Source: a virus (lineage: Duplodnaviria > Heunggongvirae > Uroviricota > Caudoviricetes). From it: a DNA stretch of 7,965 bases. This document shows positions 1-7,965 of the stretch, piece after piece. The stretch lies in IMG/VR virus record IMGVR_UViG_2711768023_000001; one strand, given 5' to 3'. Under the pieces are notes generated by a model. The model saw only the letters and a program-made list of their open reading frames with translations, did no database searches and was not told the origin of the DNA. Within the stretch, counting starts at the first letter, position 1. Every line of letters begins with the position of its first letter. The translations under genes and the position numbers were made by a program.

Positions 1-86
1 CTCCAATGACTAGTCTAAAAACTAGTATTAAGACTATCACTTATTTAAGTGATACTGGTTGTCTGGAGATTCAGGGGGCCAGTCTA
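1..86 (-). mobile_element. IS2 left end (IRL and adjacent sequence), partial; the element continues beyond the left edge of the window
   Basis: Reverse complement of 1..86 matches, from memory, the first ~86 nt of IS2 (TAGACTGGCCCCCTGAATCTCCAGACAACCA.TATCACTTAAATAAGTGATAGTCTTAATACTAGTTTTTAGACTAGTCATTGGAG), with the terminal TAGACTGGCC at 77..86. All three forward frames contain stops. Recalled sequence, not searched. Confidence 0.8.
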
Positions 87-109
87 GTAAGGCTGCGAGA
101 GGTGAATAA
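87..109 (+). pseudogene. 3' remnant of a class-II holin (pinholin S21-like) gene truncated by the IS2 insertion
   Basis: Frame 2 reads ...K-A-A-R-G-E-stop (aag gct gcg aga ggt gaa TAA, 89..109), matching the recalled C-terminus of phage 21 pinholin (...RRKAARGE). The TAA overlaps the endolysin ATG (TAATG), as in lambdoid S-R junctions. Upstream of position 87 the sequence is IS2, not holin. Confidence 0.5.
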
Positions 110-482
110 TGTCGCCATCATTACGCAAGGCTGTTGCAGTTGCTATTGGTGGCGGGGCTGTTGCTATAGCATCTGTGTTAATCACTGGCCCAGGTGGTAA
201 CGATGGTCTGGAAGGTGTCAGCTACATACTATACAAAGATATCATTGGTGTATGGACTGTATGTCACGGACACACCGGAAAAGACATCATGCCTGGTAAA
301 ACGTATACCGAAGCAGAATGCAAAGCTCTCCTGAATAAAGACCTTGCCACTGTCGCCAGACAAATTAACCCGTACATCAAAGTCGATATACCGGAAACAA
401 CGCGCGGCGCTCTTTACTCGTTCGTTTACAACGTGGGCGCTGGCAATTTCAGAACATCGACGCTTCTTCGCAAAATAAACCA
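109..482 (+). CDS. R: SAR endolysin (phage 21 R-like lysozyme, T4-lysozyme/GH24 fold), 3' end hidden in the N gap
   Basis: ATG 109 with GAGAGG Shine-Dalgarno ~7 nt upstream. N-terminal Gly/Ala-rich weakly hydrophobic segment ([21 protein letters not shown]) typical of a signal-anchor-release domain, followed by the Glu/Asp/Thr catalytic context (GLEG..YKD..VWT). Near-identical over 125 residues to recalled phage 21 R / E. coli prophage lysozymes. The ORF runs into the N run at 483. Confidence 0.9.
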
Positions 483-933
483 NNNNNNNNNNNNNNNNNN
501 NNNNNNNNNNNNNNNNNNNNNNNNNNNNNNNNNNNNNNNNNNNNNNNNNNNNNNNNNNNNNNNNNNNNNNNNNNNNNNNNNNNNNNNNNNNNNNNNNNNN
601 NNNNNNNNNNNNNNNNNNNNNNNNNNNNNNNNNNNNNNNNNNNNNNNNNNNNNNNNNNNNNNNNNNNNNNNNNNNNNNNNNNNNNNNNNNNNNNNNNNNN
701 NNNNNNNNNNNNNNNNNNNNNNNNNNNNNNNNNNNNNNNNNNNNNNNNNNNNNNNNNNNNNNNNNNNNNNNNNNNNNNNNNNNNNNNNNNNNNNNNNNNN
801 NNNNNNNNNNNNNNNNNNNNNNNNNNNNNNNNNNNNNNNNNNNNNNNNNNNNNNNNNNNNNNNNNNNNNNNNNNNNNNNNNNNNNNNNNNNNNNNNNNNN
901 NNNNNNNNNNNNNNNNNNNNNNNNNNNNNNNNN
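483..933. other. Run of 451 N (assembly gap or masked sequence)
   Basis: Uninterrupted n characters. The X-containing ORFs in the track across this interval are artifacts. Confidence 1.
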
Positions 934-1116
934 AAATGCCCTGTGCCATCCTCAGCCGAAACCTCCAGCGCCTCCGGCATGGGCAATGATGCCACCGTCG
1001 AACTCTCTCCAGTTGCTGGACGAAACGTTCTCGGTATCCGGGACGGAATCATCAGCGACCAGACAGCATTGAGAATGCTTCAGGAGTACATCAGGATCCA
1101 ATGCCTTGGGGGGTAG
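934..1116 (+). CDS. Rz: i-spanin (Rz-like), C-terminal part only; 5' end in the gap
   Basis: Open frame emerging from the gap and ending at TAG 1114..1116. The C-terminus (...LQEYIRIQCLGG) has a Cys near the end, like lambda Rz (...YINEQCR). Sits immediately downstream of the endolysin and contains a nested +1-frame proline-rich ORF. Confidence 0.6.
   Translation, partial: KCPVPSSAETSSASGMGNDATVELSPVAGRNVLGIRDGIISDQTALRMLQEYIRIQCLGG
935..1072 (+). CDS. Rz1: o-spanin (Rz1-like lipoprotein), nested in the +1 frame of Rz; 5' end (signal peptide) in the gap
   Basis: The +1 frame reads ..ALC-HPQPKPPAPPAWAMMPPSNSLQLLDETFSVSGTESSATRQH, stop TGA 1070..1072. Pro-rich with a PPAPPAW motif like lambda Rz1 (PPPPPAW). 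The Cys at 944..946 is a plausible lipobox Cys. Confidence 0.6.
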   Translation, partial: NALCHPQPKPPAPPAWAMMPPSNSLQLLDETFSVSGTESSATRQH

Positions 1117-1204: not shown

Positions 1205-1714
1205 TTAGCTAAAAAAAGGCAACACGAAGCTAAAACTACCAACATAAAGTGCTGACCAGCTAGCAGCTGAAATCAGACTCACTGTATACACTTTCACTGG
1301 ATGAAGTTGCAACATTCCTGCCACCAAAGGAGCAATATAACGCAGCACGGCGATAAAGCGCGAAGTGAAAAGTATTGACACAGAGTTATTTTGCAACTGA
1401 AGGCGAACCCGTTCTATTGTATTGGAACGGCTTGATATTATACATGCAAGTTGAGGGATATGCCCAATTATTATACCAAGATGGTAATTAACGATAGTAC
1501 CGCACCATGCGCCACTCATGACCGTGATTCCAGCTTCCCATGGTGAAAGAGTCGTCTTGCTGACTGTAATTACAGTGGCCATCATAATTGATGCTGGTGG
1601 CAATATCGCCGAAATGAGTAAAGTGGATTTTGTGAACGCTATTATAAAAAGAAGCCCCCATAGGCGATATGGATGAAGTACAAAATAGTTCATCAAAGCA
1701 TTTATCCACTCCAT
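1205..1714 (-). CDS. DedA/YqaA-family-like polytopic inner-membrane protein (moron, function unknown)
   Basis: 510-nt ORF on the complement strand. ATG is the complement of 1712..1714, preceded by an AGGAA Shine-Dalgarno; the track's first codon is a TTG at 1715..1717. Stop TAA is the complement of 1205..1207. The protein is mostly hydrophobic with several predicted transmembrane helices and resembles recalled E. coli YqaA (P..S..PW...T.G...G..N..LG ... LRY). The region is visibly AT-rich relative to flanking phage genes. Confidence 0.7.
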   Translation of the reverse strand: MEWINALMNYFVLHPYRLWGLLFIIAFTKSTLLISAILPPASIMMATVITVSKTTLSPWEAGITVMSGAWCGTIVNYHLGIIIGHIPQLACIISSRSNTIERVRLQLQNNSVSILFTSRFIAVLRYIAPLVAGMLQLHPVKVYTVSLISAASWSALYVGSFSFVLPFFS

Positions 1715-1767
1715 CAATGTCTTTCCTTCTGTGAATTTTTCTTTGCTATTTAACCGTGATACGACTT

Positions 1768-1911: not shown

Positions 1912-2676
1912 ATGGCAAAACCGGACTGGGAGGCCATCGAATCGGCATACCGGGCCGGAGTCCTTAGCCTCCGTGATATAGGCGAGAAATACGGCGTTAC
2001 AGAAGGGGCTATCAGGAAGAGGGCCAAAAAGCTTGGTTGGGCACGCAGTGGCGGTACGCAGGTTTGCAAAAATGGTACGCAAAAAAGGAAAGTGCGTACC
2101 AGCAGAAAGCCTGCCATTACTGGCCTTACACAAAAAAGTACGCAACTAAAAACAGAATCTACACCGGATACGAAACCGATACGCGGAATGCGTACCGATC
2201 CCCCGACTAACCCATTCCAACCCGGTAACCAGCAGGCATTAAAACACGGTGGTTATGCCCGTCGCCTTCTGCTCAAAGATGAGGTGATAGAGGACGCTAA
2301 AGCGTTGACGCTCGAGGACGAATTATTTCGCCTTCGTGCTAACAACCTTGTCGCTGCAGAGAATATTGGTCGGTGGTTGGTGTCGCTGGAAGATGCTAAT
2401 GGGGACCAGGAAAGGAAGATGCTGATTGAAAATATCAGCGCCGCCGAGAAAGCAATGATGCGCAATACAGTTCGTATTGAGTCCATCGTTGGCACGCTTG
2501 CGACGGTAGGAAAAATATTTGCTGATACAGCCTACCGCAAGGCCGCCACTGATAAGGTGTCTCTGGAGGCTGATCGTCTTCGCCGTGATGCAGGTATTGA
2601 TGATGGCAATGGAGAGCGTGACCTCAATGACTTCTACTCTGACATCCAAACCGACGCTGAATCCGGCTTTACGTAG
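1912..2676 (+). CDS. Terminase small subunit (HTH-containing)
   Basis: ATG 1912 with AGGAAG Shine-Dalgarno 8 nt upstream. N-terminal helix-turn-helix-like segment (LSLRDIGEKYGVTEGAIRKRAKKLGW), basic central region, acidic C-terminus. Lies immediately upstream of, and overlaps, the large terminase gene. Stop TAG 2674..2676. Confidence 0.8.
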   Translation: MAKPDWEAIESAYRAGVLSLRDIGEKYGVTEGAIRKRAKKLGWARSGGTQVCKNGTQKRKVRTSRKPAITGLTQKSTQLKTESTPDTKPIRGMRTDPPTNPFQPGNQQALKHGGYARRLLLKDEVIEDAKALTLEDELFRLRANNLVAAENIGRWLVSLEDANGDQERKMLIENISAAEKAMMRNTVRIESIVGTLATVGKIFADTAYRKAATDKVSLEADRLRRDAGIDDGNGERDLNDFYSDIQTDAESGFT

Positions 2677-4030
2677 TTTCTGGACTATGCGGGCACGTAA
2701 CAAAGTGCTTTATGGTGGTCGGTCATCGTCAAAATCATGGGATGCCGCTGGCATTGCCATATTTCTGTCGAATAAATACACCCTGCGTTTTTGTTGTGCC
2801 CGTCAGATCCAGAATAAAATCGAAGAGTCGGTGTATACCCTGCTCAAAATTCAGATAGACAGGTTTGGTCTGCGGCACCGTTTCCGTATTCTGAACAACA
2901 AAATCATTAACCGGGTTACTGGCTCGGAATTTGTTTTTTATGGATTATGGCGCAACATCGAAGAAATTAAGTCACTGGAGGGGATCGATGTGTTGTGGCT
3001 GGAAGAAGCCCACGCACTGACGGAATACCAGTGGAAAATTCTGGAGCCAACGATCCGTAAAGAGGGTTCGGAATGCTGGTTCATATTCAACCCCGGACTT
3101 GTTACTGATTTCGTCTGGCGCAACTTCGTTGTTGATCCGCCCGAAGGCACTCTCATCCGCAAAATTAACTATGACGAAAATCCGTTTCTGTCTGACACCA
3201 TGCTTAAGGTTATCGACGCGGCGCGACGCCGTGATCCGGATGGTTTTAAACATGTGTATGAGGGCGTTCCGGAGTCTGATGATGATGCGGCAATCATCAA
3301 ACTGTCTTGGATAGAAGCCGCAGTGGATGCGCACAAAACGTTAAATTTCGAACCCAGTGGAAGAAAGCGTATTGGCTTTGACGTGGCTGACAGTGGTACA
3401 GATAAGTGCGCTAACGTTTACCGTCACGGATCCGTTGTTTTCTGGGCCGACGAATGGAAGGCCAAAGAAGATGAATTACTGAAGAGCTGCCAGCGTACTT
3501 ATCAGGCGGCGCTGGAGCGTGAAGCAGATATTGTTTACGACTCTATCGGTGTTGGTGCGTCTGCCGGTGCTAAATTCTCTGAAATTAACGCTGACCGGAA
3601 GAGCGAGAACGCATACGCGCGACGTGTGAATTACCAGAGGTTTAACGCCGGTGCTGGTGTGCATGAGCCAGATGACGAGTACAACGGCATCCCCAACAAA
3701 GACTTTTTCGCAAATCTTAAGGCTCAGGCATGGTGGCTGGTGGCTGACCGTTTCAGAAATACGTTTAACGCCATTAACAACGGAGAACAGTATCCTGTGG
3801 ATGAGCTGATCAGCATAGATTCTCGTTGTCCGTTGCTTGAAAAGCTGAAACTGGAACTGACAACACCTCATCGTGATTTCGACCGTAACGGACGTGTGAT
3901 GGTCGAAAGTAAAAAAGACCTCGCAAAACGCGAGATACCGTCACCAAACGTTGCTGATGCATTCATTATGGCCTTCGCGCCAATCGATACATCGCTGGAT
4001 ATCTGGGAACAGCTGGGGAGACAGGCCTGA
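2627..4030 (+). CDS. Terminase large subunit (PBSX/Terminase_6-like ATPase-nuclease)
   Basis: The ORF is open from 2519. The most plausible start is ATG 2627 (MTSTLTSKPTLNPALRSFW...) with GGAG 12 nt upstream, overlapping the TerS 3' end; alternative ATGs are at 2600, 2603 and 2609. P-loop YGGRSSSKSW, Walker-B-like DVLWLEEAH, C-terminal nuclease-domain acidic motifs (IGFDVADSG.., ..VADAFIMAFA). Stop TGA 4028..4030. Confidence 0.9.
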   Translation: MTSTLTSKPTLNPALRSFWTMRARNKVLYGGRSSSKSWDAAGIAIFLSNKYTLRFCCARQIQNKIEESVYTLLKIQIDRFGLRHRFRILNNKIINRVTGSEFVFYGLWRNIEEIKSLEGIDVLWLEEAHALTEYQWKILEPTIRKEGSECWFIFNPGLVTDFVWRNFVVDPPEGTLIRKINYDENPFLSDTMLKVIDAARRRDPDGFKHVYEGVPESDDDAAIIKLSWIEAAVDAHKTLNFEPSGRKRIGFDVADSGTDKCANVYRHGSVVFWADEWKAKEDELLKSCQRTYQAALEREADIVYDSIGVGASAGAKFSEINADRKSENAYARRVNYQRFNAGAGVHEPDDEYNGIPNKDFFANLKAQAWWLVADRFRNTFNAINNGEQYPVDELISIDSRCPLLEKLKLELTTPHRDFDRNGRVMVESKKDLAKREIPSPNVADAFIMAFAPIDTSLDIWEQLGRQA

Positions 4031-5496
4031 TGGCACGAAACAAACAAGCCCTGCGGCGAACTGTGCAGGCCACAGCTGATGGTTATGAGAATTTTATTGC
4101 CCGCGTAGGGATGCAGACACCTAACCAGCACTCAGCATCCACCTACCGGGCTAATTTCACCAGTCGTAACCGCATGCTGGTGGAATGGTCCTATCGTTCA
4201 TCCTAGATCATCGGCGAAGCAGTCGATGCTATCCCGGATGATATGACCCGCAAAGGCATTCGCATCACTTCGGAAATTGATGCAAAAGATCGTGGCATTC
4301 TCGAATCACAACTGGATGAGTTGCAAATCTGGGATGCGCTGAATGACGTGCTGAAATGGTCGCGCCTCTACGGCGGCGCGGTGGGTTTCATCATGATTGA
4401 GGGGTAGGCACCAATGACCCCGCTGCGACCCGAAACCATCGGTAAGGGCAAGTTTAAGGGGATTCTCCCGCTCGACCGCTGGATGGTCGACCCGGCACTG
4501 ACCCGCCGCATTAAAGATATGGGGCCGGACCTGGGTAAACCTGAGTTTTACGATGTGGTGACCACAGCAACGGGAATTCCTGCCTGGCGCATTCATCACA
4601 GTCGCCTGATTCGCTTTGATGGCGTCACGTTGCCATTTCAGCAGAAGATGACCGAGAACGAATGGGGAATGTCGGTTGTAGAGCGTATCTGGGATCGTCT
4701 TACCGCGTTCGACAGCGCTACTGTCGGCGCGGCGCAGCTGGTCTACAAGGCGCATTTGCGTACCTACAGCGTGGAGAAGCTACGCGAGCTTATCGCACTT
4801 GGTGGTCCTGCGTATGAAGCGTTGCTGAAGAATATCGACCTGATTCGACAGTTCCAGAGTAATGAAGGCATGACGCTCATGGACTCGCGGGATAAGTTTG
4901 AAACCCATCAGTACAGCTTCAGTGGTCTGGATGACATCCTTTCGCAGTTTGTAGAACAGATTAGTGGCGCTGTTGGTATCCCACTGGTGCGGTTGTTCGG
5001 ACAGTCCCCGAAAGGATTTTCTACCGGTGATGCAGACCTTGCCAACTATTACGATCGCATCAGTTCGTTGCAGGAGAGGCGTTTACGTCTTCCGGTGCGG
5101 CGGATACTGGACATCATGCATCGTTCGGAACTTGGCAAGCCGCTGCCGGACGATTTCACGTTTGAGTTTAACCCGCTCTGGCAAATGTCTGATGTCGATC
5201 GCTCAACGGTGGCGTTAAACACCACCAACGCAATCAGTACGGCGCTGGGTGATGGTCTGATGACACTGAAAGCCGCTATGACTGATTTGCGAGAAAATTC
5301 TGACGTAACCGGCATCGGGGCATCCATTACCGACGAGGACATCGAGAATGCCGAAGATGAAGCGCCGCCCGGCATCGGCGAACCTGATGACGAACCGCAG
5401 GAGCCGTCAGGCGGAAATCCGGTATCGAACCAGCCTACGCAGGATAGCGAGGGCGGTCGGAGACATCGTAAATGGTCGCTACGATGGTTCAAATGA
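4030..5496 (+). pseudogene. Portal protein gene interrupted by two in-frame amber (TAG) codons
   Basis: ATG 4030 overlaps the TerL stop (TGATG) with GGGGAG 9 nt upstream. A single frame runs 4030..5496 (486 sense codons) except for TAG at 4204..4206 and 4405..4407. The peptides on both sides read as one continuous portal N-terminal region (..YRANFTSRNRMLVEWSYRSS*IIGEAVDAIPDDMTRKG.. and ..RLYGGAVGFIMIEG*APMTPLRPETIGKG..). The longest uninterrupted part is 4414..5496 (360 aa). Acidic C-terminal tail; stop TGA 5494..5496. Confidence 0.8.
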
Positions 5497-6130
5497 CAGT
5501 ATCACGGAAATTATTGCGGCGCTGGAGCGTTACAGTGAAATCATCACCCCCTGGGCGACAAAGGTCGCGGAAAACTTTACTGCGGACCTAACCCGGCAGA
5601 ACGAGAAAGTTTGGCGGCAACACAGCAAGAACATCAGTCGCGAGCTCCGCAATCTTGTGGAAAGCGCTCCTGTGGGCCAGGTGATGCAATCCATCATCGC
5701 CGAACAGGTCAAGTACATCAAATCTCTGCCTCTCGAGGCCGCAGACAGGGTGTACGACATCCAGAACAAAGCGATAGAGGCTGTTGTCACCGGTGGTCGG
5801 GCGGAGCAGTTTGCTAAAGAGATTGCATCTACCGGCGATGTTGCTAAGTCTAGGGCCGATCTGATTGCCCGAACGGAACTGGGAAGAGCAACGGGCGCGC
5901 TGGATATGGCCCGAGCGATAGCTATTGGCTCGGATGGTTATATTTGGCGTACAGCCGATGATGGCGATGTCCGAGATTCCCACGATCACATGAAAGGTAA
6001 ATTCGTCCGCTGGGATTCACCTCCAACTTTGGACGGCATGACCGGCCACGCGGGCGAGCTGCCAAACTGCCGCTGCTATAAAGAGATCGTGTTTGTTCGC
6101 GTTCCATTCGCAATGAAAAGGGCAGCATAA
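5348..6130 (+). CDS. Head morphogenesis protein (phage Mu F-like / SPP1 gp7 family minor head protein)
   Basis: Carries the hallmark C-terminal motif of the Mu-F family (YIWRTADDGDVRDSHDHMKGK....GHAGELPNCRCY). ATG 5348 has a GAGGA Shine-Dalgarno 9 nt upstream; alternative in-frame ATGs at 5357 and 5387. Overlaps the portal 3' end by 149 nt. Stop TAA 6128..6130. Confidence 0.8.
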   Translation: MPKMKRRPASANLMTNRRSRQAEIRYRTSLRRIARAVGDIVNGRYDGSNDSITEIIAALERYSEIITPWATKVAENFTADLTRQNEKVWRQHSKNISRELRNLVESAPVGQVMQSIIAEQVKYIKSLPLEAADRVYDIQNKAIEAVVTGGRAEQFAKEIASTGDVAKSRADLIARTELGRATGALDMARAIAIGSDGYIWRTADDGDVRDSHDHMKGKFVRWDSPPTLDGMTGHAGELPNCRCYKEIVFVRVPFAMKRAA

Positions 6131-6133
6131 CCC

Positions 6134-7354
6134 ATGAAATACTTTTTTGAGACCAGGCTCGGGGAAACCCGATACCGCCTGGCTGACGGCTCGTTGCTGT
6201 GCAAAGACGTGCCGATAGGACGAACAGGTAAGCAGCTCTATGGTGCTGATGACCTGCCAAAACTGAAACCCGATAAGTTCGGTGAAATAGTCGTCACGCG
6301 TTCTCCTGAGCAGGTATTCCATCCGGCCACGCTTGCCTCATTCGAAGGGATGAGCATCACGATCCTGCATCCTGAAGATGAAAACGGGAATGTGCGGCTG
6401 GTAAATCCCGAGAACTGGAAAGAGCTTGCTGTCGGGCACCTCCAGAATGTCCGGCGCGGGACGGGTGAGCAGTCTGATTTGATGCTGGCTGACCTTATCG
6501 TCAAAGACGAAAGCGCCATTCAGCTTATCGAAGATGGCCTGCGCGAAGTGTCGTGCGGCTATGACGCGGAGTACGAGCAGACCGAGCCAGGTAAAGCCGA
6601 GCAGGTCGATATTACCGGAAACCATGTGGCTCTTGTCCCTAAAGGCAGAGCCGGAAATCGTTGTGCAATTGGAGACAGAGACACAATGGCAAATCAAAAG
6701 AAAAACTGGTGGAACCGCATGCGTGCGGCCATCAAGACAGGAGATGCCGACACCATGAACGAACTGGTGGAGTCGGCTCCCGCATCGGTTACAGGAGATG
6801 AGGGGGATTTGCCGCAGGGCGTTAATCTCAACATCAACCTGTCCCCGCAGCAACCACTACCGGACAAAGCACCAGAGATGGGCGGAGATCCAACCGGCGA
6901 CAGTGATGATGACCTCAAAACATTACTGAAAGCCCTGCTGGCTAAGCTGGAAAGAAATGCCACGGGCGATAACGATAATAAGCCTGACGATAATCCGACC
7001 GGTGACGGCGAGGACGATGAAGAGGAAACCACGATTACTGGTGACTCAGCCTGGCGTGCCGAAGTTATCGTTCCGGGTATCGATCTGAGCCGTAAGATGA
7101 AACCGACCGCGTTCAAACGCGAGGTTCTGGCTTCTGCTGACAAAACGCTGGTTCGCCAGATAGTCGGTGATGCGGATATCCGCAAATTACCGAAACAATC
7201 GGTCGACATGGCGTTTAATGCCGTGTCTGAGGTTGCCAAAGGGCGAAACACCCGCGCCACCACCGGCGATGCACAGCGCCTAAACATGGGCATGACCAGT
7301 ATCGCTTCCCTGAACAAACAAAACGCTGAATTCTGGGCAAACCGTAAAGGGTAA
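6134..7354 (+). CDS. Phage head-assembly protein, DUF2213-like N-terminal domain with an acidic TGD-repeat scaffold-like region
   Basis: ATG 6134 sits 3 nt after the upstream stop, with a purine-rich AAAAGGG 11 nt upstream. The N-terminal ~180 aa (MKYFFETRLGETRYRLADGS..HPEDENG..) resembles recalled DUF2213 phage proteins. The middle is acidic low-complexity with repeated TGD motifs; the C-terminus is more basic and helical. Position between the Mu-F gene and downstream structural genes fits a scaffold/protease role. Stop TAA 7352..7354. Confidence 0.7.
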   Translation: MKYFFETRLGETRYRLADGSLLCKDVPIGRTGKQLYGADDLPKLKPDKFGEIVVTRSPEQVFHPATLASFEGMSITILHPEDENGNVRLVNPENWKELAVGHLQNVRRGTGEQSDLMLADLIVKDESAIQLIEDGLREVSCGYDAEYEQTEPGKAEQVDITGNHVALVPKGRAGNRCAIGDRDTMANQKKNWWNRMRAAIKTGDADTMNELVESAPASVTGDEGDLPQGVNLNINLSPQQPLPDKAPEMGGDPTGDSDDDLKTLLKALLAKLERNATGDNDNKPDDNPTGDGEDDEEETTITGDSAWRAEVIVPGIDLSRKMKPTAFKREVLASADKTLVRQIVGDADIRKLPKQSVDMAFNAVSEVAKGRNTRATTGDAQRLNMGMTSIASLNKQNAEFWANRKG

Positions 7355-7357
7355 AAA

Positions 7358-7864
7358 ATGAATAATGTATTTCTGTACCGGATGCCTGTTGGCATTGCCG
7401 GGGCTGTCTCTCGCCCGCAGGACTTAACCGTCGAACCGGTGGTCCTTAAATCCGATAACGCCTTCGCTGCCTATGGCCTGGCTGGTAAATACGATGATGA
7501 CGGTTTTTTCGTGCCGCTGGCAGATGGTGATACCGCAGACAAGGTGAAGGGGATCTACGTGCGCCCTTATCCGACCACGTCGCAGCCGGACATGGTTCGC
7601 CAGGTGGGAACAGGCAAGAACTTCCCGGGCGACGCCATGAAGCGTGGCTACGTGACCGTTAATCTCGGTTCTGATTTTGATGCCAGCACTATCAAAAAAG
7701 GCGATCCGGTATACGTTGTCGTCTCCACTGATGAATCCATCAAAGTGCCGCTGGGTGGATTCATGTCCACGTCAGTCAGTGGCAAAAACGTGGTGCTGAC
7801 CAACGCTGAATTCACAGGTGCCGGTGATGCTGACGGCAATGCAGAAATTTCCTGGAAGATTTAA
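7358..7864 (+). CDS. Hypothetical phage structural protein (possibly a head cement/decoration-type protein)
   Basis: ATG 7358 with AAAGGG Shine-Dalgarno 7-9 nt upstream, tightly packed 3 nt after the preceding gene. 168 aa, Gly/Asp-rich. No motif I can assign confidently; the role is inferred only from position in the head module. Confidence 0.6.
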   Translation: MNNVFLYRMPVGIAGAVSRPQDLTVEPVVLKSDNAFAAYGLAGKYDDDGFFVPLADGDTADKVKGIYVRPYPTTSQPDMVRQVGTGKNFPGDAMKRGYVTVNLGSDFDASTIKKGDPVYVVVSTDESIKVPLGGFMSTSVSGKNVVLTNAEFTGAGDADGNAEISWKI

Positions 7865-7879
7865 GGAACAGACGAATGA

Positions 7880-7965
7880 GGTGATGCTGCCAACTTACTG
7901 ATTTAGTGTATGATGGTGTTTTTGAGGTGCTCCAGTGGCTTCTGTTTCTATCAGCTGTCCCTCCT
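7880..7965 (+). mobile_element. IS1 left end (IRL plus start of insA), partial; the element continues beyond the right edge of the window
   Basis: 7880..7965 matches, from memory, the first ~86 nt of IS1 (GGTGATGCTGCCAACTTACTGATTTAGTGTATGATGGTGTTTTTGAGGTGCTCCAGTGGCTTCTGTTTCTATCAGCTGTCCCTCCT). Recalled sequence, not searched. Confidence 0.85.
7935..7965 (+). CDS. insA: IS1 InsA (transposition repressor), 5' fragment only
   Basis: GTG 7935 followed by GCT TCT GTT TCT ATC AGC TGT CCC TCC (ASVSISCPS), the recalled N-terminus of IS1 InsA. Truncated by the window edge. Confidence 0.6.
   Translation, partial: MASVSISCPS

Follow-up and report, generated by a model that had tools for sequence, protein, structure and literature searches.

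Two amber codons in the portal gene of a Shigella sonnei prophage remnant, very probably marks of ordinary decay

How does a phage portal gene come to hold a full-length reading frame that is broken by nothing except two internal stop codons, both of them amber? The gene lies at 4030–5496 of a 7,965-nt stretch of DNA, the whole of which is called the window here; positions are counted on the window, and features are on the plus strand unless stated otherwise. When 4030–5496 is translated, a single 489-codon frame is obtained (488 codons and the closing TGA at 5494–5496), and its internal stops are two, both TAG, at codon 59 (4204–4206, amber 1) and codon 126 (4405–4407, amber 2). The frame aligns with the 1467-nt genes of three loci (L001–L003) free of gaps and with 3 mismatches. 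Both results agree with the preliminary description of the locus, which had a 1467-nt portal frame unbroken except at these two codons.

The window is identical (100%) to the chromosome of Shigella sonnei, as seen in 53G (HE616528.1) and nine more assemblies. Both TAGs were present in all 10 of the independent NCBI S. sonnei assemblies fetched, four of which are complete chromosomes, and in 7 IMG/VR loci from 4 contigs. Because they recur in independent assemblies, base-calling error is excluded. The S. sonnei annotation shows the portal as three small ORFs of 58, 54 and 360 aa, and the UniRef name of one of these fragments is "Alpha/beta hydrolase". Each of the three is found on at least 1000 contigs, source-named S. 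sonnei. A search of the literature on S. sonnei prophage pseudogenes found nothing for this locus.

The repaired 488-aa protein matches Pfam family PF06381 (Phage_portal_3, formerly DUF1073) at 355 bits (cut-off 33.8) and TIGR01555 at 255 bits (cut-off 196). PF06381 is also matched by the 54-aa and 360-aa fragments, the latter spanning Pfam positions 84–355 of 357. Compared with experimentally solved portal dodecamers, the repaired protein aligns with the Pam3 portal 8hds over residues 15–413 (E = 2e-37), and 9jlf, 9l01, 9b41 and 8fvh match it with E = 1e-14 to 1e-22. The gene order is TerS-TerL-portal-MuF-DUF2213-cement-(capsid), with the portal directly after the large terminase gene. Judged by its sequence, the window copy is a pseudogene of the PF06381 portal family and not a functional member.

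The ancestral codons can be read from intact relatives. The closest intact portals (488 aa) are those of Escherichia coli FDAARGOS_943, FDAARGOS_944 and VL40, and they differ from the window only at 4205 (G>A), 4405 (C>T) and 4952 (C>T). In the window, the first change makes Trp59 TGG into TAG, the second makes Gln126 CAG into TAG, and the third is Ala308Val. In FDAARGOS_943 and FDAARGOS_944 the same prophage adjoins pgl as it does in S. sonnei, so that the copies are orthologous; measured against these intact copies in the same place on the chromosome, the disabling lesions are 2 nonsense changes among 3 nucleotide differences. Codon 59 is TGG in 75 of the 75 IMG/VR relatives that cover it, and codon 126 is CAG in all 76 IMG/VR relatives without the window allele, none of which has an internal stop. 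In E. coli, neither TAG occurs in any of 5,426 complete genomes. In the alignment with the Pam3 portal, Trp59 and Gln126 are conserved as well. A single transition separates each TAG from TGG or CAG, as had been surmised beforehand, and the homologues, 488 aa long and identical over the 4030–4404 translation, do not start at the equivalent of 4414. Mutations and ancestral states alike are direct observations, and so is the restriction of the two stops to S. sonnei. Incidentally, exact look-ups of hypothetical products suggest single-amber or V308-only haplotypes in a few Logan contigs; these rare haplotypes are mutually incompatible and do not fit a single simple mutation order.

The rest of the window belongs to the same prophage. 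It opens with an IS2 end (1–86, minus strand; 100% match to the annotated IS2 of L002) that sits within the 3′ end of the holin gene. In S. sonnei loci, IS2 transposase genes lie directly left of the window start on the minus strand, and further IS elements lie upstream. Next come the final 23 nt of holin (87–109) and an RrrD-like lysozyme gene starting at 109; 87–482 is collinear with L001 2101–2496, and the lysozyme gene has a single sonnei-specific change (230 C>T, Pro41Leu). The lysozyme end and the start of Rz are masked (483–933) by 451 N, where the true stretch in S. sonnei 53G is 408 nt. The 3′ part of the Rz-type lysis gene (934–1116; PF03245) ends with TAG. An intact cargo gene for a DedA-family membrane protein is next (1205–1717, minus strand; PF09335, WP_011069285.1), with a single synonymous change at 1433. 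The putative small terminase subunit gene (TerS, 1912–2676) is intact, ends with TAG and has only one change, synonymous, at 2370. It has no Pfam match and is labeled hypothetical in RefSeq; its place just before TerL points to the TerS role. The large terminase subunit gene (TerL, 2627–4030; PBSX family/Terminase_3) is also intact, with one synonymous change at 2908.

Downstream of the portal, a Mu F-like head morphogenesis gene (5387–6130) is intact in the window, as are a DUF2213/Pa193_gp24-type head gene (6134–7354; one change, 7341 G>A, Ser403Asn) and a capsid cement protein gene (7358–7864). The major capsid (DUF2184) gene retains only its first 4 nt, ATGA (7876–7879), and its remainder is deleted; the capsid gene of L001 starts at 9847, which corresponds to 7876, and collinearity stops at 7879. 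The left end of IS1 (7880–7965) then replaces 19,075 bp of prophage in S. sonnei. Capsid, neck, tail, baseplate, fibres and ipaHb are gone with this deletion, which ends at a DNA-invertase remnant adjoining pgl. The IS elements and the deletion are observed as such. A prophage tRNA cluster, which in relatives has the anticodons cat, tct, tgt and tcc, is lost or reduced in S. sonnei, and no CUA-anticodon tRNA was found in the window or, for two S. sonnei loci, in the 10-kb flanks on both sides of the 360-aa portal ORF. The remnant is young, because all other visible genes of the window are still intact ORFs, and portal fragments may be expressed from it.

Two nonsense hits, both amber, were called unusual in the preliminary description, but they are explained by the mutation spectrum. 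The 7342 visible nt of the window hold 8 sonnei-specific changes, 7 of which are G:C>A:T transitions. Of all G:C>A:T changes open to the window genes, 5.0% are nonsense, and TAG makes up 55% of such nonsense; two stops that are both amber are therefore an expected outcome. By effect, the changes (8 events only) are 3 synonymous, 3 missense and 2 nonsense; this is consistent with neutrality, under which 35% synonymous would be expected for G:C>A:T changes. Given 7 G:C>A:T changes, at least 2 nonsense outcomes have P about 0.044, slightly above the neutral expectation, and at least 3 of 8 changes within the portal have P about 0.20. Neither value is notable, because the window was chosen for having these stops.

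Amber 1 falls on a Dcm site. The ancestral CCTGG at 4202–4206 (context CCTGGAT) is such a site, in which 4205 stands opposite the methylated cytosine of the complementary strand. Positions paired with 5-methylcytosine in CCTGG are 0.8% of the G/C positions, and 1 of the 7 transitions is at one of them (P about 0.055 by chance). Amber 2 is outside any Dcm site. Dcm methylation was probably active in the S. sonnei host, and cytosine deamination is plausibly the chemical cause of the transitions. In clonal pathogens G/C>A/T transitions predominate, and GC>AT changes are in excess in Shigella relative to E. coli (PMC2936535). Paired amber stops in enterobacterial pseudogenes require no special explanation.

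We conclude with high confidence that ordinary decay has made the portal a pseudogene, within a defective prophage remnant that every S. sonnei sequence sampled carries. This had been offered as the simplest reading at the outset, and it is upheld by intact orthologues 3 nt away, the IS insertions and the deletion of capsid and tail genes. The course of events could be as follows. A myovirus-type prophage would have integrated beside pgl and been inherited by the S. sonnei lineage. Relaxed selection would then have allowed IS insertions and the IS1-linked 19-kb loss of the genes for capsid and tail, together with a small number of point mutations, nearly all of them G:C>A:T transitions, the class usual in clonal pathogens. 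Two of these transitions would have struck TGG (Trp59) and CAG (Gln126), the sole codon kinds that G:C>A:T turns into amber, with the Trp59 amber arising at a Dcm 5-methylcytosine position. Translation should end at codon 59, and the portal is presumably not expressed in full. A full-length portal would be neither needed nor useful, since a capsid can no longer form.

Copies in related bacteria have lesions of their own. FDAARGOS_943 has IS2 in TerL and a TGG>TGA change in its MuF gene. In the S. dysenteriae-type copy, the portal is interrupted by IS1 at nt 308, 7 bp are deleted, and 9 of 13 substitutions are G:C>A:T. The annotation of S. dysenteriae Sd197 has a 360-aa product from the same Met, and this protein is encoded exactly by an IMG/VR locus (L093). 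An amber common to S. dysenteriae and S. sonnei was considered and rejected, as L093 keeps CAG at codon 126 and has the IS1 cut instead. As far as these alleles tell, portal inactivation in S. dysenteriae is independent of the S. sonnei ambers.

It is improbable that low-level readthrough, or reinitiation at ATG 4414, provides some portal or a 360-aa fragment with a retained or new role. That ATG is 7 nt past the second TAG and opens the 360-aa ORF, and the terminase and head genes on either side of the portal have kept their reading frames intact. However, passage through two serial stops is a product of two small probabilities, and the 360-aa piece is without the first 128 residues, conserved family positions among them. 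Intact neighbors are what 8 changes in 7.3 kb would leave, the synonymous ratio is neutral-looking (8 events), and further frameshifts have already appeared in genes neighboring the portal in some S. sonnei strains (L006 and L013). With capsid and tail genes missing, and with no relative having a stop at either site, functional readthrough as it was first proposed is unsupported. Less probable again is that the remnant is kept for function, the truncated portal and the intact terminase and head-accessory genes interfering with related incoming phages. If this were true, selection, and not neutral decay, would have turned the portal into a poison or decoy by way of the two ambers.

We give still less credence to a conditional portal gene, whose full protein would be made only in a host with a supE/supF-type suppressor tRNA. 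Both stops are amber, and codon 126 was ancestrally Gln, the residue of a supE-type suppressor. In addition, the TAGs of Rz (1114–1116) and TerS (2674–2676) are backed up by an in-frame TAA, 1 and 7 codons on. These TAAs had been pointed out before, and they are real, but reading them as an adaptation to suppression fails: E. coli relatives with intact portals share the same bases, so that they are inherited sequence. Trp59, which is kept even in the distant Pam3, would not be restored by a Gln- or Tyr-inserting suppressor. No CUA-anticodon tRNA was found within the range given above. With major capsid, neck, tail and baseplate genes gone there is nothing for a portal to assemble into, and a complete, viable phage genome is absent, the fibre genes being deleted too. 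The suggested suppressor host finds no support, and none of the relatives has a stop at either site.

The probability that TAG is a sense codon here, as it is in certain recoded phages, is negligible; a structural gene does contain in-frame TAGs, one of them where Gln is ancestral, but they number two in one gene, TAG terminates Rz and TerS, either TAG is found in none of the 5,426 complete E. coli genomes or 76 IMG/VR relatives, no suppressor tRNA is encoded nearby, and the host is an ordinary enterobacterium, so that the defining features of reassignment are lacking. Just as negligible is the probability of an artefact, be it an error in sequencing or assembly or an amber mutant made in the laboratory. 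Only a surface resemblance to the classical amber mutants of phages speaks for it, and it is ruled out by the ten independent NCBI assemblies, the 4 IMG/VR contigs and the wide occurrence of the resulting ORF fragments.

With ordinary decay as the preferred reading, the 58-, 54- and 360-aa ORFs derive from a single portal pseudogene, and their annotation should say so. For prophage decay in a clonal pathogen that is still young, the locus serves as a neat case study. Because the ancestral allele persists nearly unchanged in E. coli, the lesions can be listed one by one: two nonsense transitions (one of them Dcm), IS2, IS1 and a 19-kb deletion.

How does the case compare with known systems? First, the repaired protein is homologous to the solved portals of PF06381 (Pam3 8hds, E217 gp19 8fvh, 9jlf and 9l01), and Trp59 and Gln126 are kept in Pam3; unlike these, the window copy is unable to give a full chain. 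Second, amber collections of lambda, T4 and P22 contain morphogenesis-gene ambers grown on supE/supF hosts, and growth of phage amber mutants on suppressor hosts reportedly goes back to Epstein et al. in 1963. Such classical mutants likewise can have TAG in a portal gene with the frame otherwise intact, one transition from TGG or CAG. On the other hand, the S. sonnei case is natural, occurs in every assembly examined, and belongs to an element without capsid and tail genes and with no suppressor found nearby. Third, Coulondre, Miller, Farabaugh and Gilbert are said to have first shown, in lacI in 1978, that deamination of 5-methylcytosine at Dcm sites (CCWGG) creates hotspots for ambers. Amber 1 likewise came from a G:C>A:T change, placed precisely where CCTGG has its methylated cytosine, whereas here only 1 of 7 transitions is at a Dcm site and an active Dcm is presumed for the ancestor of S. 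sonnei. Finally, the locus is an IS-ridden cryptic-prophage pseudogene. Such pseudogenes of Shigella and E. coli arise under relaxed selection through point mutations, deletions and IS insertions, and they have the same IS load, structural-gene deletion, fixed nonsense codons and G:C>A:T spectrum. There is no essential difference from them, and here the ancestral allele is known nearly base for base.

Translation of 4030-5496 gives one 489-codon frame with internal TAG codons at 4204-4206 (codon 59) and 4405-4407 (codon 126), exactly as the preliminary description had it, and with TGA as the terminal stop; a mechanical ORF listing cuts this frame into ORFs of 58, 54 and 360 aa. The gene is a portal gene. 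In Pfam, the repaired protein matches PF06381 (Phage_portal_3) with 355 bits over profile positions 7-355 of 357, and it matches TIGR01555 with 255 bits. The Pam3 portal (8hds) aligns with residues 15-413 at E = 2e-37, Trp59 and Gln126 being both conserved, and E217 gp19 and other solved portal structures align with weaker scores. The gene is located directly 3′ of the large terminase gene and 5′ of the MuF, DUF2213, cement and capsid genes. Homologues do not begin at the equivalent of 4414, a late start that had been weighed as an objection to a single interrupted gene, because the first 128 residues of the repaired protein are part of the family domain.

Naming of the family is inconsistent, as some RefSeq E. 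coli records call it ‘anti-CBASS protein Acb1 family protein’ and one UniRef entry calls the 54-aa fragment ‘Alpha/beta hydrolase’; Pfam and the solved structures identify a portal, against those names. Incidentally, the last 110 nt of the portal gene (5387-5496) also belong, in a different frame, to the MuF-like gene as annotated in relatives, and gene callers differ on its start (247 or 152 aa).

A related portal was found in 382 of 5,426 complete E. coli genomes. Three of these, FDAARGOS_943, FDAARGOS_944 and VL40, have a 99.8% identical portal as an intact 488-aa CDS (WP_000113499.1), whose gene differs from the window by exactly three bases: 4205 G>A turns TGG (Trp59) into TAG, 4405 C>T turns CAG (Gln126) into TAG, and 4952 C>T gives Ala308Val. 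Thus, the earlier guess of TGG or CAG at the amber sites holds, with one at each. When short queries centred on each amber were searched against E. coli genomes, neither TAG was found, the best matches being 98.4% (one mismatch). Seven of 84 IMG/VR loci match the window exactly and represent 4 contigs; the other 77 (76 distinct relatives) all have CAG at codon 126 and none has an internal stop, and all 76 loci covering codon 59 (75 distinct relatives) have TGG there. Because the prophage adjoins pgl both in FDAARGOS_943/944 and in S. sonnei, these are orthologous copies of one integration.

Compared with the E. coli copies over the 7342 visible bases that are collinear, the window carries eight private changes: seven G:C>A:T transitions and one A>T. 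Three are synonymous, three missense and two nonsense. Of all G:C>A:T changes that the genes of the window could undergo, enumeration gave 34.5% as synonymous and 5.0% as nonsense; the observed synonymous fraction (3/8) is consistent with neutrality, on eight events. TAG makes up 55% of the nonsense outcomes in the window's genes (57% in the portal), and therefore two G:C>A:T nonsense hits would both be amber with P ~0.3. The probability of at least two nonsense changes among seven is 0.044, and that of at least three of eight changes falling inside the portal is 0.20; neither is evidence of selection, as these stops were the reason for singling out the window.

The ancestral context of the first amber, CCTGG, is a Dcm site, in which 4205 pairs with the methylated cytosine on the opposite strand; bases so paired are only 0.8% of the window's G/C positions. 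This amber is what 5-methylcytosine deamination, a classical source of amber codons (reportedly Coulondre et al. 1978), would give, but it is a single event, and Dcm activity in the lineage is presumed.

The surrounding prophage is a remnant. The window opens with one end of an IS2 (1-86), whose insertion hit the 3′ end of the holin gene, and closes with an IS1 end (7880-7965), which cuts off the major capsid gene after its first 4 nt; beyond IS1, S. sonnei has a DNA-invertase remnant and then pgl. In FDAARGOS_944, the same two junctions are 19,075 bp apart, and the interval contains capsid, neck, tail sheath/tube-type, tape-measure-like, baseplate, spike and fibre genes and ipaHb, none of which S. 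sonnei has at this site. Upstream of the window portion, S. sonnei has further IS elements in place of the prophage tRNA cluster, which is therefore reduced or lost: intact relatives have four tRNAs (anticodons cat, tct, tgt and tcc; L001, an intact E. coli locus, 918-1228) between the antiterminator and holin genes, S. sonnei 53G has the first only (L007, 2320-2393), and other S. sonnei strains (L004) have none.

The type III effector gene ipaHb lies near the right end of the intact prophage of FDAARGOS_944 (L098, 17361-19187), and in S. sonnei it was taken from this site with the capsid and tail genes by the IS1-linked deletion. Since its prophage carries ipaHb, FDAARGOS_944, labelled E. coli, resembles EIEC or a Shigella-like strain. 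A DedA-family membrane protein gene (1205-1717, minus strand; WP_011069285.1), placed between the lysis module and the packaging module, is intact and common to all close relatives; it is probably a prophage cargo gene.

Two functional explanations had been proposed for the ambers. An amber-suppressor host is unsupported: the capsid and tail genes are gone from this site, and neither the window nor, in two S. sonnei loci, the 10 kb to the left and right of the 360-aa portal ORF contains a tRNA with a CUA anticodon. The TAA codons that back up the TAG stops of Rz and TerS, noted earlier as making suppression tolerable, are identical in relatives with intact portals and are therefore inherited, not an adaptation. 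Low-level readthrough is likewise unsupported, because with the capsid-to-fibre genes missing from the S. sonnei site, a full-length portal would lack partners for assembly.

The 360-aa ORF recurs on thousands of contigs, and the ten longest NCBI places with it are Shigella sonnei chromosomes, including 53G (HE616528.1). Six of these ten match the visible window parts at 100%, and the remaining four depart from it by a single mismatch and, at most, a few indels. Each of the three portal fragments occurs on at least 1000 contigs, S. sonnei by source naming. As both TAG codons are present in all ten loci and also in four IMG/VR contigs, sequencing error is excluded, and so is a laboratory origin, the two-amber allele being common to all the S. 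sonnei assemblies examined.

Rare products, seen in Logan alone, point to haplotypes that have the first amber only (417 aa), the second only (125 aa) or Ala308Val only (488 aa). No single simple order of mutations accommodates all three, and mixed samples assembled into chimeras may account for them.

Other copies decay in parallel. In FDAARGOS_943, a sister lineage whose portal is intact, IS2 sits inside TerL (equivalent to about 3075-3080), and TGG>TGA puts a stop into the head-morphogenesis gene MuF (equivalent to 6013). An S. dysenteriae-type copy encoding exactly the Sd197 protein (L093, 1-1186) was inactivated independently: IS1 cuts its portal at nt 308 with CAG126 intact, its DUF2213 gene has a 7-bp deletion at about 2053, and G:C>A:T changes make up 9 of the 13 substitutions by which this copy differs from L001. 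An amber shared with S. dysenteriae was rejected, the matching 360-aa annotation being a gene-calling coincidence.

The masked run 483-933 is 451 nt long, whereas the corresponding stretch in S. sonnei 53G (L007, 6113-6520) is 408 nt; because of this difference, the 335-aa ORF 109..1116 across the mask is an artefact, the real genes being a 165-aa lysozyme and a 156-aa Rz. Within these 408 nt, S. sonnei differs from FDAARGOS_944 and VL40 at 7, all altering amino acids in lysozyme or Rz by base changes of mixed type. Since changes here are ~15 times as dense as elsewhere in the window and differ in spectrum, this stretch may be a recombination patch.

The intact E. coli orthologues, the G:C>A:T spectrum, the IS elements and the missing 19,075-bp interval bear out the original reading: the portal gene at 4030-5496 is an ordinary pseudogene, part of a decaying S. 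sonnei prophage remnant, and the dominant mutation class and codon usage account for both ambers. The feature is of a known kind. Published work names G/C>A/T transitions as the commonest mutation where selection on clonal pathogens is relaxed, and reports that Shigella has more GC>AT changes than E. coli (PMC2936535).
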